Virus record (IMG/VR): IMGVR_UViG_3300036715_000947
Span: 1 to 63,115 of that record
Origin: a virus
Lineage: Duplodnaviria > Caudoviricetes
Length of the DNA: 63,115 nucleotides
Strand: one strand, 5' to 3'
Part shown: in pieces, positions 2,860 through 63,115 of the stretch
Layout of the letters: each line of letters starts with the position of its first letter
Numbering within the stretch: position 1 is the first letter of the stretch
The notes under the pieces: model-generated
What the model was told of the DNA's origin: nothing
Databases searched by the model: none
The model's input: the letters and a program-made list of their open reading frames with translations, nothing else
Position numbers and translations under genes: made by a program

Positions 2860-3100
2860 CTTTGTCTCCTGTCTTGTTGATGGGACCTAGCTCTTCCATC
2901 ACTTTTCCCGCTCCGAAGGCCCACTTGGCGAAGTCGAGGAATTTTTCTGTGCCCTGCTGGCAGTAGGCGGCTACGTCAGGTCGAAGCACACCGACAATCC
3001 ACATGGACACAGCTATGATGAGCGCGATGAGTGAGGCAATGCGCGTGAATGACCAGTTTCCGCGCTTGTCCTTTAGCCAGCCTTCCGGTTGAGTGTTCAT
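2849..3100 (-). CDS. putative holin
   Basis: 83 aa with hydrophobic helices; ATGA overlap with the endolysin stop. Confidence 0.6.
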   Translation of the reverse strand: MNTQPEGWLKDKRGNWSFTRIASLIALIIAVSMWIVGVLRPDVAAYCQQGTEKFLDFAKWAFGAGKVMEELGPINKTGDKDGQ

Positions 3101-3537: not shown

Positions 3538-3574
3538 ATCAAACCTCCTGTGCGGCGCAGTGCCGCGACTTGCG

Positions 3575-4009
3575 TTATGATACCGCCGCGATCAAGGCAG
3601 CCTTGCCACCAAGTGCCTCTATCAATACCTGCGGCGTCCACCCTCGCGCCTCGTGGTCCAGGCCAAGGACCAGGGCCGCGAACTCGGCACACTCCCAGCC
3701 CGCATGGTCCCCAGGATCTCCTAGGCCCGCCAGGATCGCGTCCTTGGCGGAGTAGTGGTCCCCGAGGTGCTGGAGGACCATGGGCACGTCAACGGTTCGC
3801 CCGGTGTGGAAGACAGTGGGGGCGTCCTTCATGCGGTTGCGGAGGGCGTGGCAGGACACACCGCCGATGGCGCGGGCCTCAAGGACCAACGGCTCGCCAT
3901 CTACCACCCAGAGCACCCCGCAGTGGTCCCAGGCGCTACGGGTCCACCAGCGAATGACGGCGGCTACGGGGCCTCGCCCTCGGAACATGACTAGATCGCC
4001 GGTCTGCAT
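3575..4009 (-). CDS. permuted papain-like (YiiX/YebB-type NlpC/P60) enzyme
   Basis: GDLVMFRG...TRSAWDHCGV (His first) and ECAEFAA (Cys later). Confidence 0.75.
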   Translation of the reverse strand: MQTGDLVMFRGRGPVAAVIRWWTRSAWDHCGVLWVVDGEPLVLEARAIGGVSCHALRNRMKDAPTVFHTGRTVDVPMVLQHLGDHYSAKDAILAGLGDPGDHAGWECAEFAALVLGLDHEARGWTPQVLIEALGGKAALIAAVS

Positions 4010-4471
4010 CTAGGCCCCCATGCTCACGGCCTTGTCCGTCGCCACGATCCAGGCCCGCTGGCTCTCCCAGGTGGTGTCGGGGATCATCCCGGCCTTGGCG
4101 AGGTTGGCGCGGTAGATCGCCGCGTAGTTCTCGGCGGGCACGATGAGGGCCTGGAGCCCAGTGGCCGCGATCCCAGCCGAGGCCCAGGCGGCGATGGCAT
4201 CGGCCTCGGCGCAGGTCGGGTTGGCCTTGATGTAGTCCACACTCGCGGACTTTCCGGCGAACCGCTCCTGCCGAAGAAGCTGGTCCACACTGGAGAACTC
4301 TCCGATAGAGTCAAGCCCCTGGAGAGACGCCACAACGGGCACCTTTGTGTTGTAGTTCTCCACCTGGAGCTTGGCGATGGAGGCGGCGCACTGATCCACC
4401 AGAGCCTTGGCCTGGATAAGTGCAGCCTCCTTTCCGTTGAGAAGGGCGAGGGTTTGAAGGGCGTCAGCCAT
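4010..4471 (-). CDS. hypothetical protein downstream of the tail tip gene
   Basis: 153 aa ORF with GGAGGAG SD. Confidence 0.75.
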   Translation of the reverse strand: MADALQTLALLNGKEAALIQAKALVDQCAASIAKLQVENYNTKVPVVASLQGLDSIGEFSSVDQLLRQERFAGKSASVDYIKANPTCAEADAIAAWASAGIAATGLQALIVPAENYAAIYRANLAKAGMIPDTTWESQRAWIVATDKAVSMGA

Positions 4472-4486
4472 GGTAGGCTCCTCCAG

Positions 4487-29634: not shown

Positions 29635-31977
29635 CTACCCGCCTACTGAGGCAAGAAGTGACTTGGAAATCTTGAGCGGTGCACGGCGCATGGTGACAAG
29701 CTCAAGCGCTCCCATGAACGCGTCCACATCATCGTCTTTCGCTGCGTTGGGGAAGATGGCACAGCTCTCGACGAAATCATGCGCCCACTTGGTGCCCTTC
29801 AGGATGCGCACCAGACCTGCCTCCTGGATAGGCGACACCACATTGGCACGAAGCACCTTGTCTGTGGAGTGCACCACCTCCACAAACGGGATGCGCGTGA
29901 GGCGCGATAACGCCTGTATGACCGCCTTGCCCGTGGCAGAGCCGCCACCTTCGATGCCCACCTGCGACGGTCGCCATTTGTCGTACAGTTGCTCGACCTT
30001 GCGCTCCAACTCAGGGAACTCGATCTTCTCGCAGAACAGATCGAGCATGACGTAGCCGTCCTTGGCTATGCCCATGGTGACGCAGGCCGCGTTGTCGTTG
30101 CTCTGCTTGCCGCCTGCCGCCGTGTCCCAGTACTGAATGATCTGCTCCAATTGGAAGAAGACTTTCAGCCTCTCCACCTCATCGCCACCAATGCGTACAT
30201 CGGCGGGTGGCCCAGAGACATATTTCCAATTGTCGCGCAAGAAGATGACACCCTCTGCGGCAGACGGCCTCTGCTGATAGAGACTGGCCCACACACGAGA
30301 GCCCGTGCCTACTTCGTCGATGTCACCAGACCCGTAGCGTATGCGGTTCAGCGCTTCGATGGGATAGCGTGCGGGGTGCAGCGCCTCACCTTTGCGGCGA
30401 TACTTTTCGTCCTCTTCCGCAATGGCCGGGTACTTGGCAACCTCCCATTTCTCGCCGCCCTTGCCCATGGCCGTGAGCAACCGACCAGCTAGATCGTCGG
30501 CGTGCCATCGAGTGTTGTGTGCCACCAAGCCGTTTGCGATGAAATTCTCTGTGCCCTCTACCTCAATATCGAAGACCTCTTGCTCACCAACGGGCTCGAT
30601 GGCGCAAATTTCATCTTCGGTGAAGTCGTAGATATTCGGCGGCAGCGCTGAGAATTCGTGAAGTCTTTCCGTAGCCAACTGCGAGGTTGCAGTCGTTGCA
30701 CAAGAGTCCTCGCGTCTTACCGGTTCGGTGGTCGTGGTCAACGCATAGCTTGGCGTCCCAATGAGCCCTTGTGTTTTGACTGGTAGGTGGCTTCCGGCAA
30801 ATGGCGCACTTTCCTCCCTGCTGTTTAAGAAGCGCGTCGAACTCTTCCGCAGTAATGCCGTAGCGATATTTGAGACGCGACGCCCTGCGCGATTCAGGAT
30901 TGACTGAAGGCGGTCGCACACCATTCGCCCAGCGGGTTTTGTTGTAGTGAGATTTGCAGAGTCCTTTGCAACTGACTGGCTCCGTACACCCATCGACAGA
31001 GCACTCAACTCCGCGCCAGTGGCCGTAACTGACACTAGCTTGTCGCCCACTTTGAGATTTCTTAGCCTTGTCCATACAAGCGCCTCGCTCCTGCGAACGA
31101 GGAAAGGGTGGCGTTCGTTCGCTTTCACAAGCCTACCTGAACTCGTTCTGATTTCATAGCAGAAATCAGAACCTTGGCTCTTCCAATGTTTTACGAACGA
31201 CGTTGACAGCGCACCCTTATTGAACGTTGCAATCTCATCGCCAGCACGAACATCAAGCATGGGCTTCTCTGTGCCATCGGCCATCAACACCGGAGTGTCG
31301 CCAGTGACACACATGATCAACAGAATGCCGCCTCCGGGCTCTGCGCGAGTCTTGAGTGTAGTCTCGTACCAGTCCCAAATACTTTGACGCGTAGTGACAG
31401 AGTACGCCTCCTGCGCGTCCTTAACAGGATCATCGATCATCAACACGCGTGCTCCACGGCCCGTGACGCCCGTTCCCACGCCCGCGCTCTTGTACGCACC
31501 CTTGTGGCCCACAATCTCGAACTGTTCAGAATTGCGCAAGAACGAGCCCTTGGACGTAACAGTGCGCACTGACGAACTGCTCAAGGTGGTGTCGGGGAAC
31601 AACTGCGCGTACTCTTCCTGATCAATAATCTTCTGCACGTCACGATTCATCATGGACGCGAGATCATTCGAGTAGCTGGTTGCGATGAACGTCAGGTCAG
31701 GGTAGCGCCCTAGCGCATACGCGGGAAACCGCCTGGACACCATCTCAGACTTGCCCGAGCGAGGCGGGGCCATGATCATCAAGCGCGGAGACTTGCGATC
31801 AATGACATCTTGAAGGAATTGGTCTAGCTTTGCCGCCAACTCGTAATGAAACCAGCCAGCGTTGTAGTCGCTCTTCGTCCAGAGGATGAACGCCAGTAGA
31901 TCGCGCTTCGCCTTGGCGCGTATGGCGTCAATCATGCTCAACTTTTCGGCGCGGCTTAGCGTCTCCAGTTCAAGCAC
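29635..31977 (-). CDS. terL: terminase large subunit precursor containing a 266-aa intein (spliced product about 514 aa)
   Basis: Walker A MAPPRSGKSE, Walker B LMIDDPVK, LIM|TRWH.DDL.GRLL, nuclease WDTA and DDDVDA. Confidence 0.95.
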   Translation of the reverse strand: MLELETLSRAEKLSMIDAIRAKAKRDLLAFILWTKSDYNAGWFHYELAAKLDQFLQDVIDRKSPRLMIMAPPRSGKSEMVSRRFPAYALGRYPDLTFIATSYSNDLASMMNRDVQKIIDQEEYAQLFPDTTLSSSSVRTVTSKGSFLRNSEQFEIVGHKGAYKSAGVGTGVTGRGARVLMIDDPVKDAQEAYSVTTRQSIWDWYETTLKTRAEPGGGILLIMCVTGDTPVLMADGTEKPMLDVRAGDEIATFNKGALSTSFVKHWKSQGSDFCYEIRTSSGRLVKANERHPFLVRRSEALVWTRLRNLKVGDKLVSVTATGAELSALSMGVRSQSVAKDSANLTTTKPAGRMVCDRLQSILNRAGRRVSNIATALLRKSSTRFLNSREESAPFAGSHLPVKTQGLIGTPSYALTTTTEPVRREDSCATTATSQLATERLHEFSALPPNIYDFTEDEICAIEPVGEQEVFDIEVEGTENFIANGLVAHNTRWHADDLAGRLLTAMGKGGEKWEVAKYPAIAEEDEKYRRKGEALHPARYPIEALNRIRYGSGDIDEVGTGSRVWASLYQQRPSAAEGVIFLRDNWKYVSGPPADVRIGGDEVERLKVFFQLEQIIQYWDTAAGGKQSNDNAACVTMGIAKDGYVMLDLFCEKIEFPELERKVEQLYDKWRPSQVGIEGGGSATGKAVIQALSRLTRIPFVEVVHSTDKVLRANVVSPIQEAGLVRILKGTKWAHDFVESCAIFPNAAKDDDVDAFMGALELVTMRRAPLKISKSLLASVGG
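30514..31311 (-). mobile_element. intein in terL
   Basis: Begins CVTGDTPVLMADG, block B ANERHPF, L.VGD, ends VFDIEVEGTENFIANGLVAHN; +1 residue Thr. Confidence 0.93.
30611..31075 (-). CDS. Endonuclease VII-type (His-Me finger) homing endonuclease nested out of frame inside the terL intein
   Basis: C..DGC...KGLC..HY zinc finger, LKYRYGIT.EEF..LL..Q.GKCAIC, LCVDHDH.TGK.RGLLC..CN.A.G; AGGAG/GAGG SD before ATG. Confidence 0.9.
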   Translation of the reverse strand: MDKAKKSQSGRQASVSYGHWRGVECSVDGCTEPVSCKGLCKSHYNKTRWANGVRPPSVNPESRRASRLKYRYGITAEEFDALLKQQGGKCAICRKPPTSQNTRAHWDAKLCVDHDHRTGKTRGLLCNDCNLAVGYGKTSRILSAAAEYLRLHRR

Positions 31978-35931: not shown

Positions 35932-36954
35932 ATGCCGGGACCGGATCACGGACGCCCCGCCACGGCCTCGAAGATGGACCCTCCGCGTCCCGGAACGTAC
36001 TGGTGGAAGCGCGTTGGAGACACCTGGACTTCCGTGTTGGTGTCAGTGGTCGCCAATGTAGCGAATGCAGCGAGTGGCGGTGAAGGCTCGTTCGACTACA
36101 CGCCGCAGGTGATCTACACGCCACAAGTGGTCTACGAGGACACGCGGCACAGAGAGGTCTGCTGGGCACATCCTCTCGAAACGTGGCACCGCGACTTCAT
36201 TTCCGACGAAGCCCACAAGAAGCAACTTGCGGCGTATGACGCAGTGGAAGAGAAGACGGAGCCGGAGGCTCCAAGGAAGACGGCGCTTCCCATCGAAAGC
36301 GACCGTCCCATCACCATCCTTGGTGTGTACCGCGCAGCCGACAAGGTGCACGTGACCGTCACTACGGAGCACGCCGAGGATCTCGTCGAGAAGCTCGTAG
36401 GGAAGCTCATCGACCAGCTTCTCAAAGACAAAGCAGACTCACCTACTTCGCTACGGAAGACAGAGGACGTACCTACGGGCCTCGTCGGTACCGAGAGCGA
36501 CCCCGCCAAGGCACAGCGCCAGCCGACGAAGGAGGATCTGGAGCGAGCCCGTGAGCACGCCACGCTTGCCTTCTCGCGCGGCAAGGCATTGGTGATCACG
36601 GCACCGCCCGACTTCGATGTGGTTACGCTCGCCACCGAGACCGCGAAGCACTTCGCGGGCAGCGCCGACGTGCTGCGTGTGGGAATGGTCACGACGGGCG
36701 TGGAGTTCTCCACAAATACTGAGTCGAGCCGCGGTGTGCTGATTATCGTCGGCCAGCCGACCAACGCAAAGCAGCTAGACGCCATAAGCGGCCTTGTCAT
36801 GGCAAGGTCCGTCTACACACGCACCGGCATCAGCGTTGCCAAGATGGCGCCGCCACCTCACGTCATCGTCGCCGACAACACAGACGGAATGATGGAGTAC
36901 TTCCCCGAGGAAACCAGGAACTTCATGCGCATCACCTTGGGCGAGGAGGTGTGA
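35932..36954 (+). CDS. hypothetical protein (start uncertain)
   Basis: Long ORF with genome-typical codon use; first gene of the plus arm. Confidence 0.65.
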   Translation: MPGPDHGRPATASKMDPPRPGTYWWKRVGDTWTSVLVSVVANVANAASGGEGSFDYTPQVIYTPQVVYEDTRHREVCWAHPLETWHRDFISDEAHKKQLAAYDAVEEKTEPEAPRKTALPIESDRPITILGVYRAADKVHVTVTTEHAEDLVEKLVGKLIDQLLKDKADSPTSLRKTEDVPTGLVGTESDPAKAQRQPTKEDLERAREHATLAFSRGKALVITAPPDFDVVTLATETAKHFAGSADVLRVGMVTTGVEFSTNTESSRGVLIIVGQPTNAKQLDAISGLVMARSVYTRTGISVAKMAPPPHVIVADNTDGMMEYFPEETRNFMRITLGEEV

Positions 36955-36955
36955 C

Positions 36956-37225
36956 GTGGACGGACTTCGCCGGAAAGAAATGGAGAGCGATCCCGCGTAC
37001 AGGAGGATGAAGGAAAATCAGTGCTGGGAGATGGCGGGTCTCGCTAGGCAGGACGGAGACTTTGCCGAAGAGAAGCGCTATGTCGACGAGGCGAGGAAGT
37101 GGGCGAGCGGCGAAAACGGTAGCCGTGGCAGCACTGAAAAAGTGACTTCGCCCGCCACCACCACTCACGAAGACACAACCGCCGCCACATACAAACAGGG
37201 CAATCCCAATCCTCCAAGGTGCTAG
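36956..37225 (+). CDS. hypothetical protein
   Basis: 89 aa; GGAGGT SD. Confidence 0.6.
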   Translation: MDGLRRKEMESDPAYRRMKENQCWEMAGLARQDGDFAEEKRYVDEARKWASGENGSRGSTEKVTSPATTTHEDTTAATYKQGNPNPPRC

Positions 37226-37227
37226 GC

Positions 37228-39291
37228 ATGTCGAAGCAACGTACCGGCAAGGACGAAGTAGAGTCCCTGATGCTAGAGAAGCTGGCAGCAAGCGGACTCG
37301 ACAAGAAGGACGCCCGCAAGCTGAAGATGCAGCCCATGGACGAGGCTGAAGCGGGCGAGGCGACGAACTTTGACGAGGCAGGGTTCAAGATTCCCTACTT
37401 TTCCGTCAACGGCGAAGAGCTGCCATTCTGGCGATTCCGCTTCCTTACCAACCGCAAGAAGGGCAAGTATTTCCAGCCGAAGGGCACCGGCGTGGCGGTG
37501 TACTTTCCTCCTCTCATAGACTGGGCAACGCGCATCGAGGACGCCAAGAAGTCCATCATCGTTACGGAAGGGGAGTTGAAGGCAGCGTGTGCAACGAAGC
37601 TAGGCTACCCAACCATCGGGCTCGGTGGCGTCTGGTCATTCAAAAGCAAGAAGAAGGAAAGAGACTTCATCGAGGACCTTGAACAGATCGAATGGCAGGG
37701 GAGGAGCACGTTCCTTTGCTTCGACTCGGACGCCACGACGAACCCCAAGGTCATGCAGGCCGAATGCGCGTTGGCAAGGGAGCTTGATCGCCGTGGCGCG
37801 AAGGTCTACATCGCACGACTACCGGCGCTCTCCAAGGGAGGGAAGACAGGGATCGACGATTACCTGATGTCCAGGCGCGGAGGCGTCAAGCGCTTCATGC
37901 GCCTTCTAGGCAAGGCAGAGGAGTGGAGCAAGAGTGCGGCGCTTCGGGAGTTCAACAACGAAGTCATCTTGATACGCGATCCGGGCGTGTGCGTGATACG
38001 GGCTACGGGCCAGCGCGTGGACACCAACACACTCGTCCACACCCTCTACGCCAACCGCGTCTACTGGAAGGCGTCGCCTACGGAGAAGGACCCGCTACGC
38101 CGCGTGGAAGCGTCGGTTCCCGCCGACTGGATCAAGTGGGAAGGCCGCGCCGAAGCAGAGAAGATGACGTACAGGCCGGGAGAGGGCGAAATCACCTCAT
38201 CCAAAGAGTACAATATGTGGAAAGGATGGGGCACGAACCCAGTGAAGGGAGACGTCGAGCCGTGGACGAAGCTCCTTGACTACGCGTTCAAGGACGCGGA
38301 CCCACGTGATCGCAAGTGGTTTGAGCAGTGGTGTGCGTACCCAATCCAACACCCCGGCACCAAGCTCTACACGGCCTGCGTCCTATGGTCCGTCAAGCAA
38401 GGAACGGGCAAGTCACTCATCGGCTACACGCTAGGCAGGATCTACGGTGACAACTACATCGAGATCAAGGACCACGACATCGAGTCCACGTTCAACTCGT
38501 TCATGGTGAACAAACAGTTCATCCTCGGTGACGAGATCACGGGCACCGACGGCCTCATGCGACGCAAGCTCGCCAACAAGCTGAAGGGCATGATCACACA
38601 GCTAAAGGCGACGGTGAACCAGAAGTACGTGTCCACGTACGAGATTCCCGATTGCGTCAACTACCTTTTCACGTCGCAGCATTGCGATGCGTTCTTCATC
38701 GAGAATGCCGATAGGCGGTTCTTTGTGAACGAAATCCGCGGAATGCCGCTGCCGCTCGGGTGGTATCGCAAGACGTACGATCCTTGGTACAAGAGCAAGG
38801 CGGGGATCGAGGCGTTGCACTACCACCTACTCCACCTCGACTGTAGGGGTTTCGATCCACACGCTCCCGCGCCCATGACGGATTCCAAGCGTACGATGAT
38901 CGAGGAAGGGCGCAGCGATCTTATGGATTGGATCGAGAGCGTGAGCCAGTACAACGGAGCCAAGAAGCTGATGACTTCGGAGGAGGTGCTTGTGCTTGCG
39001 CTAGGACAGGGCAAGACGATGTGGAGCAAGAACGGCATCACACGCGCCCTTCACTCGGCGGGATACATGCGACCGCTCGGGAATCAGCAGCAGCTAGTCC
39101 TACCGGATGGCCGACAGGTTAGGCCGTGGCTCATCGACCGACAAATGCCGGTACCGCCCAGGTCGGAGGTGACGCAAAAATGGGTACGCGATCTTTGGTT
39201 CTCGGATCGACCAATGGGCAGTCGCAAATTCAAGGAAGTACGGGCCGAAGCAACCAAGCGTTACGAGGACGAGGAGGAGGAGGAGTCATGA
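37228..39291 (+). CDS. primase-helicase (DUF3854/Toprim-like primase + SF3-like P-loop helicase)
   Basis: KYFQPKG, IVTEGELKA, GLGGVW, CFDSD, KTGIDDY; QGTGKS Walker A, ILGDE, ADRRFFV. Confidence 0.9.
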   Translation: MSKQRTGKDEVESLMLEKLAASGLDKKDARKLKMQPMDEAEAGEATNFDEAGFKIPYFSVNGEELPFWRFRFLTNRKKGKYFQPKGTGVAVYFPPLIDWATRIEDAKKSIIVTEGELKAACATKLGYPTIGLGGVWSFKSKKKERDFIEDLEQIEWQGRSTFLCFDSDATTNPKVMQAECALARELDRRGAKVYIARLPALSKGGKTGIDDYLMSRRGGVKRFMRLLGKAEEWSKSAALREFNNEVILIRDPGVCVIRATGQRVDTNTLVHTLYANRVYWKASPTEKDPLRRVEASVPADWIKWEGRAEAEKMTYRPGEGEITSSKEYNMWKGWGTNPVKGDVEPWTKLLDYAFKDADPRDRKWFEQWCAYPIQHPGTKLYTACVLWSVKQGTGKSLIGYTLGRIYGDNYIEIKDHDIESTFNSFMVNKQFILGDEITGTDGLMRRKLANKLKGMITQLKATVNQKYVSTYEIPDCVNYLFTSQHCDAFFIENADRRFFVNEIRGMPLPLGWYRKTYDPWYKSKAGIEALHYHLLHLDCRGFDPHAPAPMTDSKRTMIEEGRSDLMDWIESVSQYNGAKKLMTSEEVLVLALGQGKTMWSKNGITRALHSAGYMRPLGNQQQLVLPDGRQVRPWLIDRQMPVPPRSEVTQKWVRDLWFSDRPMGSRKFKEVRAEATKRYEDEEEEES

Positions 39292-39512
39292 TGAAAACTA
39301 CCAAGTCAGCCCTCCTGGCGATGTCGGAACAAGAGGAAGACACCATCGACACGAAGGGCGGTGCACGTGACCCAAGGTGTTCTGTGTGCTGGCTACCGGC
39401 AACTACGCGGGTTGCGTGTGAGGTAGGAGGTGCCATGGTGCGAGGCTGGTACTGTGCAAGATGCCGACGATACATCATGCCCACGCGATGCAAGGAGCGC
39501 AGCCATGGGTGA
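39288..39512 (+). CDS. small CxxC/CxxC zinc-finger protein
   Basis: ATGA coupling; CSVC...CARC. Confidence 0.55.
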   Translation: MMKTTKSALLAMSEQEEDTIDTKGGARDPRCSVCWLPATTRVACEVGGAMVRGWYCARCRRYIMPTRCKERSHG

Positions 39513-39795
39513 GGTTTCTATGGACATTACGATAAAGCTGTCCCTATCGCGCAAGGAGTTTCGGCTAGTCGGACTTGCGTTGGCGTCAAAGCCATTGCGG
39601 GCCGAGGAGGTGGAGGAGGCCAAGATGCTGAACGCCCGCTTGCAGCGACAAGTAGCGGCGGCCACCCATGAGATCGCAAGCGTGTACGGAGGCGCGGCGG
39701 AAGCAGCGGAGTCCTCCACAACCACTCCAGCCCCGCCAGCGAGCGCGGTGCGGAGAACCCCAAGGAAGAAGTCCGACGACGGAGGTGTTCTATGA
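39505..39795 (+). CDS. hypothetical protein
   Basis: AAGGAG SD; coupled to neighbours. Confidence 0.6.
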   Translation: MGEVSMDITIKLSLSRKEFRLVGLALASKPLRAEEVEEAKMLNARLQRQVAAATHEIASVYGGAAEAAESSTTTPAPPASAVRRTPRKKSDDGGVL

Positions 39796-40106
39796 TGACG
39801 CGTGCACAATTCCTTCTAGTGAAGCTGGCCGAGGAGGCGGCTGAGGTGTCGCAGATAGCGCTGAAGTCAGCGCAGTTCGGCTTGTCCGAGGTGTACGACA
39901 CCGGCGGCAAAACGCCAGCGACAAACTTGGAACGGATACACCGAGAACTCGATGACTTGATGGGTGTGCTGCAAATGCTCAACACCGAGTTTGGGTTTGG
40001 GTATCCGGACCGCGTGAACAGCGCAGCGTGCATCGAGAAAAAGATACGCAAGGTGGAGTTCTGGTACCAATACTCCGTCGATCTTGGTGCCGCGGAACCT
40101 GTGTGA
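39792..40106 (+). CDS. MazG-like NTP pyrophosphohydrolase
   Basis: KLAEEAAEV.Q...K..RELDDL. Confidence 0.7.
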   Translation: MMTRAQFLLVKLAEEAAEVSQIALKSAQFGLSEVYDTGGKTPATNLERIHRELDDLMGVLQMLNTEFGFGYPDRVNSAACIEKKIRKVEFWYQYSVDLGAAEPV

Positions 40107-40118
40107 GAGGAGGGTGCG

Positions 40119-40514
40119 ATGACAATCAAGCTCATGGACGAAAAGCCCAACTACCAGGAGTTCCTGATGGGCTATCTGGAATGTGCCGCGTGGTGTGGCA
40201 TCAGCGAAGACGATCCCAACAAGAACAAGTGCAGAGACGGACACCCCTCAGTGTACGACTTCACGGTTCACGAAATCTTCCGCGCCGAAAAGGAGTGCCG
40301 AGACTTTGTGGACTCCAATATACAGGATCTTCGCGGACTCGACATGAAGCGGTGCGGGTACGACTTTTGGTTCACGCGCAACGGTCACGGAACAGGCTTC
40401 TGGGACCGCGGGCTTGGTGAAGTCGGCGACCGTCTCACTGAGGCAGCAGAAGGCTGCGGCACGATGTACGTCTACGTTTCCCGCCGTGGAAAACTTCACA
40501 TGAAAGTGGGGTAG
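40119..40514 (+). CDS. conserved phage hypothetical protein
   Basis: GYDFWFTRNGHGTGFWDRG motif; GGAGG SD. Confidence 0.8.
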   Translation: MTIKLMDEKPNYQEFLMGYLECAAWCGISEDDPNKNKCRDGHPSVYDFTVHEIFRAEKECRDFVDSNIQDLRGLDMKRCGYDFWFTRNGHGTGFWDRGLGEVGDRLTEAAEGCGTMYVYVSRRGKLHMKVG

Positions 40515-40515
40515 C

Positions 40516-40779
40516 GTGCAGACCAGGAAACACAGTTTGTCTGAATCCGTGGGACAAGGAGGCGAGATGCACAAGTCCAGCCACGAAGTCGGCAAAGTGA
40601 AGTTTCGATCCAAGCCCAAGGACGTGGTAGTGCTCCTGCCCGTTAGGATCTGGCATCAGGTCGAGATCTTAGAGGACGGGACCGAGCGCCACTCAATCGA
40701 GCATCCTTTGCACGGCGTTTTCGTTGGTGAGACGTGGACAGAAGCACTACGCAACATGAAGCAGGCGCTACAGCCGTAG
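40516..40779 (+). CDS. hypothetical protein
   Basis: ORF in operon; start may be the internal MHKS after GGAGG. Confidence 0.55.
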   Translation: MQTRKHSLSESVGQGGEMHKSSHEVGKVKFRSKPKDVVVLLPVRIWHQVEILEDGTERHSIEHPLHGVFVGETWTEALRNMKQALQP

Positions 40780-40819
40780 CGCCTAACGACACAAGCTCAC
40801 CAGCCCATCTGGAGGAGAC

Positions 40820-40927
40820 ATGAACCACCACACTAGTCCGATATGGGCAGCGATCGGAGCAATCCTGTTCTTTGGATTGTTCTGGACCGTGCTCGATCTA
40901 ATCACCGGGAAATTCAAGCGCAAGTGA
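40820..40927 (+). CDS. 35-aa single-TM membrane peptide MNHHTSPIWAAIGAILFFGLFWTVLDLITGKFKRK
   Basis: GGAGGAG SD; hydrophobic core with basic tail; below the ORF track cutoff. Confidence 0.6.
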   Translation: MNHHTSPIWAAIGAILFFGLFWTVLDLITGKFKRK

Positions 40928-40948
40928 TACCTGACGGGGACACAATCT

Positions 40949-41266
40949 ATGGACGCACACATGATGCCTTTCACAGCAGGACCGAAGACGGTTGGGGCGT
41001 GTTCCGAGTTGAGCGACGATGTGGGCGAGGAACTGAAGCTCTACGCATGGCAGCCCAAAGGGCACGGCGAACTTTCATGGTTTGTCGTCGCCGAGACAGA
41101 GGCCGAGGCCAAAGATGCGGTTGATCGAGAGATTGCACGTAGGCTGTCGCTTCCTTGGGACGAACCAGATCACATTGGAGATTACGATGTGGAGGGATGG
41201 GGCTCTGACTATTACACGCTGACGGTTGCGAAACGTGGACAGCCAGTGAGCAACGACAACGAGTAG
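40949..41266 (+). CDS. hypothetical protein (N-terminus shared with 41934..42251)
   Basis: MDAHMMPFTAGPKTVGACSELS. Confidence 0.65.
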   Translation: MDAHMMPFTAGPKTVGACSELSDDVGEELKLYAWQPKGHGELSWFVVAETEAEAKDAVDREIARRLSLPWDEPDHIGDYDVEGWGSDYYTLTVAKRGQPVSNDNE

Positions 41267-41295
41267 CGCCCGACCGCTACCAACAGGAGAACGAC

Positions 41296-41604
41296 ATGAC
41301 AGATAGAGAACTGCTGGAAGCCGCCGCGAAGGCTGCGGGGATTGACGGAGAGTACCGAACCGAGCGCTTGTGCGTTGACGGCGACTGGACGAACGTGACC
41401 GCGATTTTTATGACTGACGGCGCGGGCTGGTGGTGGAACTCCCTCGAAGACGACGGAGCCGCCTTGCGTCTGGCGGTGAGGTTGGGTCTGCTGTTTGATC
41501 CGGATGCGTCGCGCCTGTACAGCGAAGAACTTGCGGACGGCAGGGGGCCGGAAGAAGCAGCACGCCGCGCCTTCACCCGCGCAGCCGCCGCGCTTGCGGA
41601 GTGA
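41296..41604 (+). CDS. conserved phage hypothetical protein
   Basis: MTDRELLE.AAKAAG, WN.LEDDG.ALRLAV.L, RRA.TRAAA. Confidence 0.8.
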   Translation: MTDRELLEAAAKAAGIDGEYRTERLCVDGDWTNVTAIFMTDGAGWWWNSLEDDGAALRLAVRLGLLFDPDASRLYSEELADGRGPEEAARRAFTRAAAALAE

Positions 41605-41698
41605 GGGCGTTGGTGCTTCCCAACAACAGAGTGCAGCGCCCAGCGGGGTCCTCTGAAACGAGCAGTTGAGCGGATGGAAAAACAACAAAGGAGAAGCG

Positions 41699-41890
41699 AT
41701 GGAAACCGAAAGCCAGACCATTTTGCGAAGGGCCAAGGAAGCCCTTGATTACTACCGAGAAAGAGAGAAGCAAGCAATCGAGACGCTGGCTAGTGCAAGA
41801 GAAGATGTTCGGAAAGCGCGAGAGAAATATGAGCAGCTTTTCTTGGCGGAAGAAATGCGAGAAGCGGAACGGCGTAGAAATCGCGCCTAA
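41699..41890 (+). CDS. small coiled-coil protein
   Basis: AAGGAG SD; stop TAA lies within GCCTAAC. Confidence 0.65.
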   Translation: METESQTILRRAKEALDYYREREKQAIETLASAREDVRKAREKYEQLFLAEEMREAERRRNRA

Positions 41891-41933
41891 CTTTCAAGCT
41901 GACCGGCCCCGCTGTGGGCCAAGGAGGAACGAC

Positions 41934-42251
41934 ATGGACGAACACACTATGCCTTTCACAGAAGTGCCAAAGACGGTTGGGGCGGGGTCTGAGTCGAGCC
42001 GCAATGACCAGCTTTTGAGGCTGGCGCGCCTCGGTCTCTGGTGCCTCAACGCATCCTACAGGGATTCCATCGGAGACGTTGACGGTGACGGTATCAAGGA
42101 CAAGGCACTTGAGCTGGGGATTCTTGTCACTCACGAAGTATCTGAGCCCTGCGGTGAGCACTGTGCCTGCGCGGAGTACGGGTTCCCGGCTACTTGTCTC
42201 AGAGAGGCGGAATGGCTGCACCCGTTTGAAATCCAGTTTGGAATGCGGTGA
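41934..42251 (+). CDS. hypothetical Cys-cluster protein
   Basis: AAGGAGG SD; PCGEHCACAEYGFPATCLR. Confidence 0.7.
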   Translation: MDEHTMPFTEVPKTVGAGSESSRNDQLLRLARLGLWCLNASYRDSIGDVDGDGIKDKALELGILVTHEVSEPCGEHCACAEYGFPATCLREAEWLHPFEIQFGMR

Positions 42252-42338
42252 GAGCCCAACGACCGGCAGCTCGATTGAAACCAAGCGCCGGATGCGGGGG
42301 TCCGGTTGACCGCCCGGTTGGGCGCAGGAGCAGATAGA

Positions 42339-42665
42339 ATGTGTGAATTCGGGTTCTATGAAGGGCTCCCAGGCGTAGCGGGTAGGATCACGGGCACGTT
42401 TGCCGACAGCGTAGCGTCGGTAATGCGCAAACTAAGGACCTACCGGATCGTATCCTGCAATGGCTCAATGGGCAGCGTCTCGGTGTGGATCGACGACGAA
42501 GGCGGCCTATGGTGTGAGTTCTACCAATACGGGCGGACCATGGCTAGCGCCCGGCCTACCAGCAATGCCGAGGTGAGGAAGTGGCTCGAAGAGTGGCTTC
42601 CGAAAACACGGCTAACAGCCCAACGACCGGCTAACCGGCACTGCCGGAGAAAGGAACCGAGATGA
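42339..42665 (+). CDS. hypothetical protein
   Basis: AGGAG SD directly after the GTTGGGC box. Confidence 0.6.
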   Translation: MCEFGFYEGLPGVAGRITGTFADSVASVMRKLRTYRIVSCNGSMGSVSVWIDDEGGLWCEFYQYGRTMASARPTSNAEVRKWLEEWLPKTRLTAQRPANRHCRRKEPR

Positions 42666-42961
42666 CGAACCAGAACGCCGAGGCACGGTCCGAGTCGAGC
42701 GCATGGCTTGGCGCATGGTTGCCGATTGACACAGCCCCACGAGACGGCACGGAGGTGCTGGTGTTGTCGTACCACGCGGGCGTGGCCGTAGTGCGTCCCG
42801 CGTGGTACAGGAGCCGCAAGGAATGGGAAGACTTCGGGCAGTACTTTTTTGGCTGGGACCGCCTGGAAGAGTGGGAGGGCTGGTGGTCCTACGCCAGCAA
42901 CGGTGTGGGCCAGGAAAAGCTGGAGGGGGCGCAACTTCCGACGCACTGGTATCCCATGTAG
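42662..42961 (+). CDS. DUF551-like phage protein
   Basis: WLPIDTAPRDGTEVL...PTHW.P. Confidence 0.8.
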   Translation: MTNQNAEARSESSAWLGAWLPIDTAPRDGTEVLVLSYHAGVAVVRPAWYRSRKEWEDFGQYFFGWDRLEEWEGWWSYASNGVGQEKLEGAQLPTHWYPM

Positions 42962-43013
42962 GCACCGCCATGGGACATGGAGGACGAGCCACGAACCAAA
43001 AAGAGGAGGGGCC

Positions 43014-43610
43014 TTGATCGCGGCTTTGTATGTTGAGAAAAACGGATGCTACTTCGGCCTGCCGGGAGTGGACCCGTGGGACATCGAACGGGACGCCAGG
43101 CGATACCAGGGGCCTTACCCGGTTGTGGCACACCCACCCTGTGAGCGATGGGGACGGTTTTCGGAAGGCAGCCCGACGCTGAAAACCAAGGCCACCGGGG
43201 ACGACGGCGGATGTTTTTCCGCTGCACTCACCAGCCTTCGTCGATTCGGAGGAGTGCTTGAGCATCCTGCCCAATCGAAAGCCTGGTCAGCGTTTGGAAT
43301 CCCGAAGCCACCGAAAGCAGGATGGCTTCGGGTTGGGTATGCCGAATGGACATGTGAGGTCGAGCAGGGGCATTACGGGCACAGGGCAAGGAAGAAGACG
43401 TGGCTTCTGGTGGTGGGTCCGAAGCCTCCTGAATTGATATGGGGTCCGTCCGGGCAACGGTTGCCAGAGAAGCTACTGGAGAAGCGTGGGTACGAGAGCG
43501 CCAGGCGTCGAGGGATCATAAGTAGCATGTGTAGCGAACATCGGCAACGGACGCCGATTGAGTTCCGCGATCTTCTGCTTTCAATTGCAGAGGCATCGAA
43601 TGAATGGTGA
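43014..43610 (+). CDS. putative compact C5-cytosine DNA methyltransferase-like protein
   Basis: IAALYV, DIERDAR, VVAHPPC (PC motif), GVLEHP, GHRARK.TWL, R.RTP..F; TTG start with AGGAGG SD. Confidence 0.6.
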   Translation: MIAALYVEKNGCYFGLPGVDPWDIERDARRYQGPYPVVAHPPCERWGRFSEGSPTLKTKATGDDGGCFSAALTSLRRFGGVLEHPAQSKAWSAFGIPKPPKAGWLRVGYAEWTCEVEQGHYGHRARKKTWLLVVGPKPPELIWGPSGQRLPEKLLEKRGYESARRRGIISSMCSEHRQRTPIEFRDLLLSIAEASNEW

Positions 43611-43718
43611 AGGCGGTCTATGGGCTAGCGTAACCGGGCCACGCCATTGGGACATCGCTGTGTTGGATGCGAGGCCGAGAGCTTGGCCTAAGTCCAATCA
43701 TTTCAATCGAAAATAAGT

Positions 43719-43747
43719 ATGACTAGTTAGCGCGATTGTGGGATAAT
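43719..43747 (+). promoter_or_regulatory. sigma70-type promoter ATGACT-17-GATAAT
   Basis: Upstream A-rich tract, followed by a GC hairpin and the acidic protein gene. Confidence 0.55.
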
Positions 43748-43802
43748 AGGGGTCCACCACCTCGGGCGCCGCGTCGGCGCCCCATTTCAGAAAGGGATTC
43801 TA

Positions 43803-44615
43803 ATGAATCTCCAGGTCATCACGGACAAGAGCGGGATCATCCTCGGATGGTCGCCTACCCAGGCCGATGCGAAGAAGGCGGCGAAGACTCTCGGGGGCGA
43901 GGCGTCTCCCATGGAGGTCGGAACCAGCAAGCCCGATCTCCTCGCTTTCCTCCAGAAGTACTGCACCGGCGTCCACGTGACGAAGGGCGCGAAGGTTCGC
44001 GCCGACATCGTTGCGGGGGATGCCGCCAAGAAGGACAGCGATGCGTCCGGGACCATCGAAGAGCGCGTGACGAACCTCGAAGAGGCCCTCGCAGCTACTC
44101 AGAAGGAGTTCGCTGAGGTCATCAACGAGATCCGCACCGCGCTGCCCCACGAGGACGAGGAGGAGGACGAGGAGGACGAGGAGGACGAGGAGGACGAGGA
44201 GGACGAGGAGGACGAGCAGGACGAGGAGGACGAGGAGGACGAGGAGGACGAGGAGGACGAGGAGGACGAGGAGGACGAGGAGGACGAGGAGGACGAGGAG
44301 GAGGACGAGGAGGAGGACGAGGAGGAGGACGAGGAGGAGGACGAGGAGGACGAGGAGGAGGACGAGGAGGACGAGGAGGACGAGGAGGACGAGGAGGACG
44401 AGGAGGACGAGGAGGACGAGGAGGACGAGGAGGACGAGGAGGACGAGGAGGACGAGGAGGACGAGGAGGACGAGGAGGACGAGGAGGTGAAGCCGAAGCG
44501 CGGTGCTGCGAAGAAGCCCGCCGCGAAGCCTGCGAAGAAGCCCGCCGCCAAGGCCAAGAAGCCCGCCACCAGGTCCAAGCAGCCCGCCCGTGGGCTGGCG
44601 CGTCGGCGCCGGTAG
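43803..44615 (+). CDS. highly acidic protein with a ~110-residue Asp/Glu tract and a KPAAK-type basic tail
   Basis: N-terminal domain, (EED)n, then KPKRGAAKKPAAK...RRRR; downstream hairpin. Confidence 0.85.
   Translation: MNLQVITDKSGIILGWSPTQADAKKAAKTLGGEASPMEVGTSKPDLLAFLQKYCTGVHVTKGAKVRADIVAGDAAKKDSDASGTIEERVTNLEEALAATQKEFAEVINEIRTALPHEDEEEDEEDEEDEEDEEDEEDEQDEEDEEDEEDEEDEEDEEDEEDEEDEEEDEEEDEEEDEEEDEEDEEEDEEDEEDEEDEEDEEDEEDEEDEEDEEDEEDEEDEEDEEDEEVKPKRGAAKKPAAKPAKKPAAKAKKPATRSKQPARGLARRRR
44151..44487. repeat. (GAGGAGGAC)n coding microsatellite
   Basis: Near-pure 9/12-bp units with a single CAG interruption. Confidence 0.95.
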
Positions 44616-44640
44616 CTGACGGAAGCACAGCGTGAAGAGA

Positions 44641-44666
44641 GCGGCCCGGTCCATGCACCGGGCCGC
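44641..44666 (+). terminator. hairpin GCGGCCCGGT-CCATGC-ACCGGGCCGC
   Basis: 10-bp perfect stem after the stop; weak U-tract. Confidence 0.55.
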
Positions 44667-44689
44667 TTCATCTACCCAAGAGGTGTCCA

Positions 44690-45070
44690 GTGCCTAGCCT
44701 CTACAAACTCAAGCACCAAGCGTTCGCCATGGCACGCGCAAACGGTCACTGCTTCTCACAGTACCATCGAGTAGGGCGGATGTGGGTGGCCGAGTGCGTT
44801 TGGTGCGGGCGCATGGTGCTAGTCACTACCGATCCAGTGCCGGGTGTTCCACACATCATTGGTGAGGTGGTGGATCTGAAGTGCCCGGCCAAGCACAAGA
44901 AACCGTGCGTCAAGTTTGCAGCAATAAAAGATGGGCGCGGCCTCCCACAGCGAAGACTCTACAAGCACTACGCAGCGTCCAAAGACGGTCTTCACTGCAT
45001 TGACTGCGGGACACTGCTGGACGACCGAGGAAAGTGTGCGTGGTGCTATGGCAGGGGAGCAAATGAGTAA
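44690..45070 (+). CDS. Cys-rich hypothetical protein
   Basis: GAGGT SD; several CxxC pairs. Confidence 0.6.
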   Translation: MPSLYKLKHQAFAMARANGHCFSQYHRVGRMWVAECVWCGRMVLVTTDPVPGVPHIIGEVVDLKCPAKHKKPCVKFAAIKDGRGLPQRRLYKHYAASKDGLHCIDCGTLLDDRGKCAWCYGRGANE

Positions 45071-45398
45071 AACGTATTACGAGATCATCGGTGTGTACCC
45101 GTGTGCAACCAAGCTGGAGATACGTGACGCGTACTGGGACAGGGCTCGGAAGATGCACCCCGACATGTTCCCCAAAGCAAGCGCAGAGGAGCTATTCAAG
45201 ATCACCACGAAGTTCACGCGCCTGACAACGGCCTACAGCGTTCTCAGTGATGCCAAGGCGCGGGCCAAGTACGACCATCTGCTAGCTCTCAAAATGCGCC
45301 CGTGCAACAAGTGCAGGGCCACGGGAGTTAGGTACAACATCCACAACAGACCGGCGCCGTGCGCCGAGTGCCTCGGAAGGGGATACCATGACCGCTGA
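45063..45398 (+). CDS. DnaJ (J-domain) protein with short zinc finger
   Basis: YYEIIGV...EIRDAY...ARKMHPD...AYSVLSD..RAKYD; CNKC.ATG, CAECLGRG. Confidence 0.88.
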   Translation: MSKTYYEIIGVYPCATKLEIRDAYWDRARKMHPDMFPKASAEELFKITTKFTRLTTAYSVLSDAKARAKYDHLLALKMRPCNKCRATGVRYNIHNRPAPCAECLGRGYHDR

Positions 45399-45624
45399 AC
45401 AGTGCTCCAATCCTGCATGGGACACATACCCGCCTCTCTCGCTCTCCCACGCAGCGTTCCACATCAACGTGCCGGCCCCGCTCTTCGGACAGCCGCCGTC
45501 CGCGTTCACCGCTCAGTGTGAGTACGTGCGTATCTATCTCGGCGGCGCCAAGGAGCCCGTCTTGCAGGAGAACAATCCGCAAGGCATCTTGCCGTGGGAC
45601 TCCCCTCTGCGGGACAAGCCATGA
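45388..45624 (+). CDS. hypothetical protein
   Basis: Fills the gap with coupled start and stop. Confidence 0.45.
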   Translation: MTAEQCSNPAWDTYPPLSLSHAAFHINVPAPLFGQPPSAFTAQCEYVRIYLGGAKEPVLQENNPQGILPWDSPLRDKP

Positions 45625-46589
45625 GCAGGCTGTTGGACATCACCGAACCCATGACGGCGGCGCGTGGGTTCGATCCTGACAAGCCCAAGCATCGCAAGAT
45701 GCTGGAGGACATGCTGCCAGTCTACGCGTCGTTCAAGATAGATGGCGTAAGGGCCACAGCTATCGGAGGAGTGCTCCTCGGTAGGTCCATGAAGCCCATA
45801 CGGAACAAGCACACACAGAGCATGTTTCGTAATTTGGAAGGACTTGACGGGGAGCTTGTATGTGGGCGACCCAACAGTCACGACCTCTGCCGCAACACAT
45901 CCAGCGCAATCAACTCCATCGGTGGCACGCCCGACGTGCGGTGGTTCGTGTTTGACCACACGTCAGAGGGCGGGTACTCGCAGAGACGTAAGGCGATGCT
46001 GGCCGTGTGTGCGAAAGCCATGTCACCGGTGGTTGTGCTGAAGCAACACCTGTGCTCCTCAGTGGAGGAGGTTCTTGAGCTTGAGAAGGAGGCTCTCAAA
46101 AAAGGGTACGAGGGGCTCATCATTCGCAGCGCCAACGGGCTGTACAAGAGCGGGAGATCGACCATCAAGGAGGGATACCTGCTGAAGCTGAAGCGGTTCA
46201 AGGACGCCGAGGCAGAGGTGATCGGTTTCGTGGAGCTTATGCACAACCTCAACGAACAGGAGGTGTCGGAGACGGGACGCACGAAGCGATCCCACAAGAA
46301 GGAAGGCATGGTGGGCGGCGGCACACTGGGAGCGCTGAAGGTGCGCGACCTCGAAACCGGTCAGGAGTTCGAGGTGGGCACGGGGTTCTCCGCCGACGAC
46401 CGCCAGTGGTGGTGGAACAATCGCCACACGCTCGAAAAGACGATCATCACCTACAAGTACTTCCCACAGGGGGTGAAGGACAAGCCAAGGCATCCGGTGT
46501 ACAAGTGCATCCGGCATCCAGAGGACATGCCAGTGACAAAGAAGACGGAGAAGAAGGAGGCCATGCCATGGCGATCGTCAAGAAGCTGA
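45621..46589 (+). CDS. lig: ATP-dependent DNA ligase
   Basis: KIDGVR (motif I), LDGEL, FVFD, GYEGLIIR, LLKLK, VGTGF, PRHP. Confidence 0.93.
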   Translation: MSRLLDITEPMTAARGFDPDKPKHRKMLEDMLPVYASFKIDGVRATAIGGVLLGRSMKPIRNKHTQSMFRNLEGLDGELVCGRPNSHDLCRNTSSAINSIGGTPDVRWFVFDHTSEGGYSQRRKAMLAVCAKAMSPVVVLKQHLCSSVEEVLELEKEALKKGYEGLIIRSANGLYKSGRSTIKEGYLLKLKRFKDAEAEVIGFVELMHNLNEQEVSETGRTKRSHKKEGMVGGGTLGALKVRDLETGQEFEVGTGFSADDRQWWWNNRHTLEKTIITYKYFPQGVKDKPRHPVYKCIRHPEDMPVTKKTEKKEAMPWRSSRS

Positions 46590-47080
46590 AGAAGGCGAAC
46601 AGCGAAGAGAAGCCACTGAAGGAAAAGAAAAGTGTCTTCGTCGGTGGAGCACGCGAGGTCAAGAAGCCTGCGAAGAAAAACGTGGTGGAGGGTGTGGTCA
46701 TCCCCGACACAGCGGCAGAGTGTGCAGACCTTCTGTACAAGATGCGGGAAGAGCGACTCGCCATCGAGCGCAAAGCAGCACGTGTCGGAAAGGTGGAGTC
46801 TGTTTTGAAGGAGAAGCTCACCAACATGCTGCCGAAAGACAACGCCACGGGCGTACGCGGCCACGTGGCACAAGTCACCATCGACCGCCCGCTCAAAGCC
46901 ACAGTAAGGGACTGGGACAAGGTGTTCGCCTACGTGAACAAGCACAAGGCGTACGACCTCCTTCGCCACCAGATCAACGATTCCGCCGTCATCGCAAGGT
47001 GGGAGAACGGTGAGAAGGTTCCTGGTGTGGAGAAGTTCTACGCCACGTCAATCCATTGCACGAAGATCGGAAAGAAGTAA
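46568..47080 (+). CDS. conserved phage hypothetical protein
   Basis: AAGGAGG SD; V.DWD.V..YV....AYDLL...VPGV. Confidence 0.7.
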   Translation: MAIVKKLKKANSEEKPLKEKKSVFVGGAREVKKPAKKNVVEGVVIPDTAAECADLLYKMREERLAIERKAARVGKVESVLKEKLTNMLPKDNATGVRGHVAQVTIDRPLKATVRDWDKVFAYVNKHKAYDLLRHQINDSAVIARWENGEKVPGVEKFYATSIHCTKIGKK

Positions 47081-62675: not shown

Positions 62676-63115
62676 GGGCATGGCGGCCCGGAGTACCGCA
62701 CGGACCGGGAATGCTCCCGGTCCGTGGTTTGTACCGCCGGAGCATGACCTGGCCGTGCCTGTACCGCCGGAGGGCATGACCGGGAGCATGACCGGGAGCA
62801 TGGCCGGGAAGCCTCCCATGGGCCGGAGCATGGGCCGGAGCATGGGCCGGAGCATGGGCCGGAGCATGGGCCGGAGCATGGGCCGGAGCATGACCGGGAG
62901 CATGGCCGGGAAGCCTCCCATGGGCCGGAGCATGGCCGGGAAGCCTCCCATGGGCCGGAGCATGGGCCGGAGCATGGGCCGGAGCATGGGCCGGGAAGCC
63001 TCCCACGGGCCGGAGCGTGGCCGGGAAGCCTCCCATGGGCCGGAGCGTGGCCGGGAAGCCTCCCATGGGCCGGAGCATGGCCGGGAAGCCTCCCATGGGC
63101 CGGAGCGTGGCCGGG
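62573..63115. repeat. right-end repeat complex: ~60-bp duplication (62573/62687), 12-bp GGGCCGGAGCAT units and the 30-bp unit
   Basis: Read directly; same unit as 1..295. Confidence 0.93.

Follow-up and report, generated by a model that had tools for sequence, protein, structure and literature searches.

Organization of the small-gene block

The window, as the whole stretch of DNA analyzed here is called, is an entire 63,115-bp IMG/VR virus record (IMGVR_UViG_3300036715_000947; Duplodnaviria, Caudoviricetes; CheckV completeness 100%), and our subject is a block of small genes at 40.8–42.7 kb whose junctions carry elements resembling the attC sites of integrons. The tail and packaging genes (tape measure, central tail fibre, portal and an intein-containing terminase) are on the minus strand. 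The replication genes (primase/helicase at 37219–39291, ligase, family A DNA polymerase, SNF2 helicase, exonucleases and methyltransferase) are on the plus strand. The phage is lytic and siphovirus-like, and the array is located in a variable early region that extends from primase to ligase. A preliminary description of this DNA had stated that the phage encodes no integrase, and the searches agree: the integron integrase model TIGR02249 and the tyrosine recombinase family PF00589 have no matches in the window, and PF00589 has none across the records of four relatives. No close relatives of this phage were found among the INPHARED phage records.

The block and its flanks contain nine plus-strand genes: g1 (40567–40779), g2 (40820–40927), g3 (40949–41266), g4 (41296–41604; phrog_5086), g5 (41699–41890; 63 aa), g6 (41934–42251; 105 aa), g7 (42339–42665; 108 aa), g8 (42662–42961; 99 aa) and g9 (43014–43610; phrog_12600). 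Each unit is composed of an attC-derived imperfect palindrome and, after it, one small gene whose function is unknown. The unit borders lie in the core RYYYAA|C, and the stop codon of the gene before it is often part of this core or adjacent to it (GCC TAA C). Three units bounded in this way, 41624–41890 (g5), 41891–42259 (g6) and 42260–42623 (g7), each hold a site and a single gene. The top strand of the attC-like sites corresponds to the minus strand of the window, which puts the plus-strand genes on the attC bottom strand.

The inverse-core and core boxes of attC sites carry conserved triplets, AAC ... GTT, at the two ends of the site (PMC4889954). Boxes of the RYYYAAC type had been described at or near gene ends in the block, and GCCTAAC is indeed present at 40781–40787, 1 nt past the TAG stop of g1, and at 41885–41891, where it contains the TAA stop of g5. 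GCCCAAC is located at both 42254 and 42618. TCCCAAC occupies 41618–41624 as reported, but it begins with T and is not a strict RYYYAAC. The closing complements GTTGAGC (41665–41671) and GTTGGGC (42317–42323) are also in place. Both boxes are found at 41618–41671 and 42254–42323, and the first box only at 40781, 41885 and 42618. A box falls between −4 and +25 nt from the stop codon in 3 of the 9 block genes versus 1 of 80 genes elsewhere (Fisher p = 0.0028, with the block picked post hoc).

The 54-nt element S2 (41618–41671, minus strand) is a full-length, decayed attC-like site. It consists of R'' GCTCAAC, a 5-nt spacer, GTT with one bulged base and a 6-nt arm, a loop, the 3' arm, a 6-nt spacer and R' GTTGGGA. 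The spacing is exactly that of attC, yet 7 of 18 model pairs are non-canonical; the element shares 37–39 of 60 bases with class 1 attCs. The 70-nt element S4 (42254–42323, minus strand) is a rearranged attC-like site with a perfect 7-bp R stem (GCCCAAC/GTTGGGC) and a Y-shaped fold. An exact-pattern search of IMG/VR returned no other copies of S4. A tRNA-like identity for this element was ruled out, no tRNA being found, and an Rfam scan of 38000–46000 gave three matches only, at chance level (E 0.5–1.4).

A 15-nt sequence, AGCCCAACGACCGGC, comprising core and spacer at 42253–42267, recurs exactly as a direct repeat at 42617–42631 (both plus strand), where it now lies within an extension of g7. 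The two copies bracket a 364-nt unit consisting of S4 and g7, which is exactly the cassette unit 42260–42623; such a repeat is expected 0.07 times per genome. Elsewhere in the genome, exact direct repeats of 23 and 29 nt stand about 240 nt apart (21507/21744 and 33112/33348; expectation 0.07 per genome). Each g7 homolog, the three close ones (89 aa) as well as the single distant one, stops after ...WLPKTR or ...WLPRASR, and this common end indicates that the 17 extra residues of g7 in the window read through a former g7–g8 junction. In this segment (42606–42665) the ancestral stop is lost, an out-of-frame TAA occurs at 42613, past the end codon of the homologs, and g7 overlaps g8 at ATGA; either a true frameshift or a fault of the assembly may account for the lost stop.

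S3 (41885–41999) and S5 (42618–42712), both on the minus strand, are long-loop relics. In S3 the GCCTAAC core is accompanied by CTGACCGG...CCCCGC paired with GCGGGG...TCTGAGTCGAG, the R'' box is absent, and the loop encloses the ribosome-binding site, ATG and 16 codons of g6. The pairing earlier described for this arm, GCTGACCGGCCCCGC with GCGGGGTCTGAGTCGAGC, is recovered in minimum-energy folds. The long-range stem forms in those of the window and of L034, the contig of a related phage, and a comparable stem is found in the g3 copy described below; these stems are no better than shuffles (z 0.5, 0.7 and −1.0). S5 has a GCCCAAC core and GACCGGCTAACCGGC on one side and TCCGAGTCGAGC followed by GCTTGGC on the other, and its loop encloses the ribosome-binding site, ATG and 13 codons of g8. 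A homolog of S5 in L024, the contig of another relative, is without the long-range stem. Neither S3 nor S5 has a 3' GTTRRRY (R' consensus G|TTRRRY; PMC9892861), the nearest on the plus strand being more than 400 nt off, and neither is recognized by any of the attC models used below. Their architecture is like that of two long sites in L034, with core and one arm ahead of the ribosome-binding site and the other arm 13–22 codons into the gene; S3 and S5 lack the far box.

Both relics extend over the coding N-terminus of the following gene, and their second 'arm' is a motif with three occurrences among the coding N-termini of g3, g6 and g8. Codons 1–24 of g3 (40949–41021, plus strand) form a 73-nt direct repeat 81% identical to 41934–42006 and terminate in TCCGAGTTGAGC, the counterpart of the reverse-complemented attC L'' arm in relatives. 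Elsewhere, the N-terminal stretch common to g3 and g6 is found only in the L034 contig.

The remaining element, S1 (40781–40810, minus strand), is a half-site in which GCCTAAC is followed by GACACAAGCTCACC. Judged by eye, it is similar to the start of a long L034 site (2948–2975); no 3' partner was found. A perfect 9-bp hairpin (40763–40784, plus strand; −16.4 kcal/mol, z −4.2, 0 of 200 shuffles as good) spans the g1 stop, and its 3' arm enters the 40781 box.

Intact attC-type sites in a related phage

A first attC model, R1, was made from 22 sites belonging to two class 1 cassettes that PMC9892861 names and to the integrons of a Vibrio anguillarum phage and Shewanella phage M16-3. It recovered five of five held-out class 1 attCs at E ≤ 10 (22.5, 21.0, 13.8, 12.8 and 8.8 bits). 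On phage TJE1 it found exactly three sites, one after each of orf1–orf3 (26.1, 22.8 and 22.6 bits), a number equal to the count in PMC9892861. R1 found nothing in 19 relatives that share the primase. Among closer relatives it matched the minus strand of L034 twice, each time over 56 nt, at 14.7 and 10.4 bits.

These matches led to a family of elements. L034 contains four imperfect palindromes of 56–60 nt directly 3' of stop codons, of which the first two seen are near-identical; a profile of these two retrieved the two further copies, one copy in L024, and positions 41620–41667 of the window (E = 0.004), within S2. Read on the minus strand, the L034 copies are laid out exactly like the aadA1 attC, with a 7-nt R'', a 5-nt spacer, GTT with a bulged C and a 6-nt arm, the loop, an arm with AAC, a 6-nt spacer and a 7-nt R'. 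They share 41–45 of 60 bases (68–75%) with the aadA1 and aadA2 attCs, unpaired spacers included (z 7–8.6 versus shuffles). In a BLAST search one L034 copy matched the attC position of an aadB-aadA5-blaOXA-2 class 1 array, weakly (77.6% over 49 nt, E 0.4). On plasmid NZ_KJ541071 (L037), two open reading frames within a class 1 cassette array (3248–3565 and 4453–4743) are annotated as DUF1010 domain-containing proteins; this annotation may be a reading across attC DNA, as the first of the two covers the BLAST match at 3501–3549.

For a further model, R3, five class 1 attCs (aadA1, psp, aadA2, qacH and cmlA1) were the sole source; it scores the four L034 copies at 53.4 bits (2263–2318; E 9.6e-12), 47.7 bits (1559–1614; E 3.3e-10), 45.4 bits (1258–1317; E 1.5e-09) and 36.6 bits (928–987; E 3.6e-07), all on the minus strand. 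The plus strand of the highest-scoring site reaches only 6.3 bits. Two long L034 sites on the same strand as the four copies score 19.9 bits (1935–2059; E 0.013) and 11.9 bits (2954–3078; E 1.9), and the L024 copy (5158–5210) scores 20.1 bits (E 0.011). Across 26 control loci (536,754 bases), R3 found two known attCs at 31.9 and 21.8 bits, and everything else scored 15.2 bits or less. Taken together, the R3 scores, the controls, the aadA1 geometry and the base identity identify the element family in the relatives as attC-type; by sequence, the window copies belong to the same family in an eroded state.

The window elements themselves score lower. S2, at 14.2 bits, is the sole R3 match in the genome at E ≤ 1, and its E-value is 0.012 if the search is scoped to the 2.1-kb block. 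S4 is aligned to R3 over its full length at 7.4 bits, needing insertions of 7 and 2 nt. A further R3 match of 10.4 bits at the g3–g4 junction (41261–41319, minus strand) aligns at its ends alone and is possibly an attC relic. A model built only from the five copies in relatives (R2) ranks 42254–42323 first and 41618–41671 second among 20 matches in the whole window; these matches are marginal (11.8 and 11.1 bits; E 0.66 and 1.1). Support from covariance models thus holds for the family in L034, and none of the window sites is significant genome-wide. The earlier impression that several sites look decayed agrees with S2 and S4, which align to the class 1 model full length and in the same orientation at low scores. 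A rule-based detector (AAC...GTT plus L helix) was dropped as too unspecific, and a broader attC model was abandoned because short class 1 sites could not be aligned with longer ones in MAFFT.

When seven copies including 42254–42323 are aligned, they keep a common hairpin: 84.9% of cells are paired versus 24–55% with the partners slid. Four pairs show changes on both sides, a covariation signal equalled by 8 of 500 shuffles. L034 has its four strong and two weaker sites inside 2.2 kb, all on the minus strand; the window has S2 and the sub-threshold S4 and 41261–41319, again all on the minus strand. In whole-record searches, all attC-type sites are confined to this one region.

It might be argued that the elements are phage-specific post-stop palindromes, acting as terminators or protein-binding sites, that have come to resemble attC by convergence. 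Their position directly after stop codons on the sense strand is terminator-like, their orientation is reversed relative to canonical cassettes, and R1, with its Vibrio and Shewanella types, gave the L034 copies just the two low scores above. Convergence would nevertheless have to produce 36.6–53.4 bits in a class 1-only model that gives unrelated matches at most 15.2, together with the identity to aadA1 and aadA2 in unpaired spacers, which a mere hairpin does not need; in addition, a T run follows none of the elements. We consider this explanation improbable.

Gene order and breakpoints

The primase relatives (36–58% identical in the primase) all keep the order primase, variable stretch, g12, ligase and g14 (g16 was checked in L001 only). 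None of the 19 conserves g1–g10 there, the exception being one g4 homolog elsewhere in L006. In L024, L028, L029 and L034, by comparison, g6, g8 and g9 occur in different orders and fusions. L024 has a g8 homolog (79% identical) in a different context, and 1.5 kb further on the g6 body follows another domain in a fusion. A zinc-ribbon domain precedes the g6 body (80% identical) in L028 and L029, and in all three contigs it is the part past residue 17–19 that recurs behind other N-termini. In L034, g9 is followed at once by a 105-nt stretch (2962–3066, overlapped by the long site 2954–3078) that is 87.6% identical to 41897–41999 and then by a different gene body. No relatives of g3 and g7 were found in IMG/VR, and g7 has one distant locus in metagenome contigs.

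Two other features of these contigs were noted. Ahead of a zinc-ribbon gene (MKA[KR]CCPRC), the contigs L034 (3320–3345), L024 (6208–6235) and L028 (about 2760–2790) share a second conserved junction, CCTAACTTTAATTTGGGC...; of this junction the window has GCCTAACTTT alone, at 41885. L028 also encodes two pentapeptide-repeat-like proteins (ADLSGANL-type; 1280–2026 and 3331–4014) on either side of its g6-like gene.

The region was further compared with Logan contigs from four metagenomic DNA runs of four studies, one of which may be the source sample of the window; no RNA run was listed among those that contain the sequence. Contigs are unbroken over 39000–40890 in all four runs, fragment into many pieces between about 40.9 and 43.3 kb, and in two runs continue to 44000 from 42862 or 43044. 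The breakpoints given here are among the 24 of 144 loose ends and the 32 of 298 pieces that were listed. Three of the listed ends lie close to crossovers predicted from the core: 41891 (1 nt from 41890|91), 42263 (3 nt from 42259|60) and 42630/42634 (6–10 nt from 42623|24), each in at least two runs. Further listed ends are at 41999 and 42299, and a joint leads from 42675 back to 41004 in at least three runs. Of the two results that would together have counted against the earlier proposal, a lack of covariance-model support and changes of gene content away from the sites, neither was obtained: the elements of the relatives score well, gene order differs among relatives and breakpoints occur at or near boxes. 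Many other breakpoints lie off the core. These breakpoints fit homologous recombination between similar attC sequences, or they mark the end of shared attC sequence.

These observations bear on whether the sites are still used as such. They could be attC-derived sequences on which no integrase now acts and which persist as intercistronic RNA or DNA hairpins and short shared sequences, with general or phage-encoded homologous recombination shuffling the gene bodies, as in the promoter/stem-loop cassettes of T4-type phages. Breakpoints at the inner ends of the long sites (41992–41999, and 41004 in at least three runs) are impossible from core cleavage, and homology is available in the g3/g6 repeat and in the exact 15-mer that brackets g7. 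The erosion of the window sites has gone too far for them to pass as good integrase substrates. Their hairpins stand at gene ends on the mRNA strand, and the long stems of the window and L034 differ by one compensatory and two pair-keeping changes. The intact geometry of the four L034 copies (5- and 6-nt spacers, bulged base, AAC/GTT) points the other way, as these are features read by the integrase that homology alone would not maintain; the listed loose ends 1–10 nt from three predicted crossovers do likewise, and no single-strand-annealing recombinase was recognized among the phage proteins scanned. We regard attC-derived sites without present integrase action as a serious contender, at somewhat less than even odds.

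A probable degenerate cassette array

The scores of the L034 copies, the full-length alignments of window sites and the differing gene orders support the earlier proposal of an attC-type cassette array in a phage. Judging from the sequence comparisons, 40.8–42.7 kb is probably a degenerate integron-type cassette array, that is, an integrase-less attC cluster (CALIN), a reading to which we assign a probability of roughly 0.72. A CALIN is defined by at least two attC sites on the same strand, separated by under 4 kb, with no intI nearby (PMC4889954).

Several points weigh against this reading. The strong evidence comes from one relative contig, L034, which is 63% complete (CheckV). R1, with filters off, matches nothing in the window at E ≤ 10, and within the block it gives a 3.1-bit end-match only. 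R3 was built from five sites, four of them near-identical, so that its E-values are rough, and the models differ from those of IntegronFinder. The best R3 score in the window, that of S2, has a genome-wide E of 0.35–0.46 and stands near unrelated matches of 12.9 and 12.5 bits. Three of the five window sites (40781, 41885–41999 and 42618–42712) are partial. The hairpin character proposed for the sites holds for 42254–42323 (z −3.4 and −3.5 versus shuffles, as single-stranded DNA), but the other four fold no better than shuffles (z −0.7 to +0.9). RYYYAAC occurs 67 times in the window versus 97.4 ± 10.6 times in shuffles, and the cluster of eight boxes in 1932 nt has a chance probability of 0.15 under uniform placement or 0.70 under a Markov-1 model. 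All genes are antisense to the attC top strand, unlike in a canonical cassette, where the gene is on the top strand and attC lies 3' of it. Many of the listed breakpoints are off the core (41004, 41016, 42215, 42299, 42675 and 42949), and those at 41992–41999 recur in L024, L028/L029, L034 and at least three runs. Logan contigs break at any strain difference, and loose ends are not proof of recombination. Finally, no integrase, attI site or host was identified.

The motif counts raise the question of whether the boxes are merely chance motifs in GC-rich DNA, given that RYYYAAC falls below expectation genome-wide and that the local cluster is non-significant. The homology of the element family, the 15-mer repeat, the proximity to stop codons, the covariation and the R2 and R3 scores all contradict this, and we give it almost no weight. 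We had also considered ordinary junction hairpins with microhomology and no integron array, on the basis of the R1 null result, the chance-level motif count and the poor folds; the L034 copies and the R2 and R3 results overturned that view.

Genes antisense to the attC top strand are a minority arrangement in bacterial arrays. For a cassette array of this type, having genes on the attC bottom strand means that the attC belonging to a cassette comes before its gene and in some cases includes the gene start. Some attC loops have grown to enclose the ribosome-binding site, the start codon and the first 13–22 codons, and the enlarged loop accounts for an N-terminal stretch common to unrelated proteins.

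The array would have been built by an integron integrase supplied in trans by a host. Present shuffling among co-occurring phages would then involve an integrase in trans, homologous recombination between attC sequences, or both. Homologous recombination between similar attC sequences has nearly an even chance of being the main driver today. An integrase in trans is a tentative candidate for that role, with perhaps one chance in three. More speculative, and on balance unlikely, is the broader idea that integrase-less lytic phages of sediment and microbial-mat communities are a circulating reservoir of aadA-type (Xanthomonadales-like) attC cassettes whose genes are on the bottom strand and start in the attC loop; these cassettes would be expressed by phage transcription and, during infection, swapped between phage genomes and host integrons by trans-acting host integrases.

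Other features of the genome

Several features lie outside the array. The large terminase subunit (29635–31977, minus strand) contains an intein splicing domain (PF14890) with the ATPase on one side and the nuclease on the other. The next gene beyond g9, g10 (43803–44615), encodes a run of about 110 Asp/Glu residues from 9-nt repeats (44059–44500), followed by a Lys/Ala-rich tail; upstream of it are a sigma-70-like promoter (43719–43747) and a hairpin (43764–43782). The phage RNA polymerase family PF00940 had no match, nor did it match in the control genomes.

Both ends of the record (1–280 and 62800–63115) are tandem arrays of one 30-nt unit starting AAGCCTCCCATGGGCCGGAGC; probably the assembly was opened inside one repeat array, or the genome termini are repeat-rich. 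A 13-nt unit, CGGCGAATCCTAC, is repeated in tandem at 1957–2163 in about 14 copies with two interruptions. Near the record ends, GC-rich perfect hairpins of 7–14 bp share the core GGGCCGGGAA..TCCCGGCCC (327–358, 621–649, 1384–1402 and 62699–62726). Perfect hairpins of at least 7 bp number 51 entries in the window versus 28.9 ± 6.0 in simulated sequence. A 14-bp hairpin between AAAAA and TTTTT (2182–2214) looks like a bidirectional intrinsic terminator.

Comparison with known systems

Integron cassettes are a main vehicle for the spread of antibiotic resistance, and where they are formed and travel is an open question. Clusters of attC sites in phages were first reported in 2023, with 17 CALINs in 10,705 phage genomes, and IntI1 recombined five of six phage-borne attC sites tested (PMC9892861). 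The case described here adds a lineage of related lytic phages, seen in four metagenome studies; one of its members keeps the attC family intact, and in another the family is eroding. Its attC type is close to that found beside aadA and qac cassettes, and cassette order varies between genomes. Should host integrases act on the sites, cassettes would have a route of exchange through such phages; otherwise the lineage would show the decay of attC into ordinary junction hairpins.

Like the phage CALINs that include TJE1, the array is found in a lytic phage without an integrase and has at least two attC-type sites on one strand between small accessory genes (PMC9892861). Its genes are on the attC bottom strand, unlike those of TJE1, which are on the top strand. 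It further differs from the cases in the parts of PMC9892861 considered here in that the start of the following gene falls inside some sites, the window copies are eroded and the attC sequence is close to aadA-type class 1 sites; similar cases may already be among the 17 CALINs of that study. We found no earlier description of bottom-strand genes or of gene starts in the attC loop, although no literature search was dedicated to either.

The attCs of aadA1a, aadA6, aadA7 and aadA24 belong to a clade almost confined to Xanthomonadales chromosomes (935 of 941 sites; Ghaly et al. 2021, PMC8352920). The L034 sites share base identity and the full geometry with the aadA1 and aadA2 attCs. They differ in being carried by a phage, in place of a chromosome or plasmid, and in the absence of a resistance gene.

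The promoter/stem-loop (PeSL) cassettes of T4-type phages offer another parallel: there too, variable small genes of hyperplastic regions have short conserved elements at their junctions, and these stand at the boundaries of insertions, deletions and replacements (PMC2839356, PMC4122927). PeSLs comprise early promoter and terminator motifs that are unrelated to attC, whereas the elements described here are homologous to attC. No promoters were found at the junctions (one sigma-70-like site in 36000–47000 versus 2.0 expected, and not at these junctions), and none of 17 terminator-like matches is on the plus strand there. Phage CALINs are thus already known, and what this array adds to them is inverted genes, genes that start within the attC loop, and intact as well as eroding copies in one lineage.

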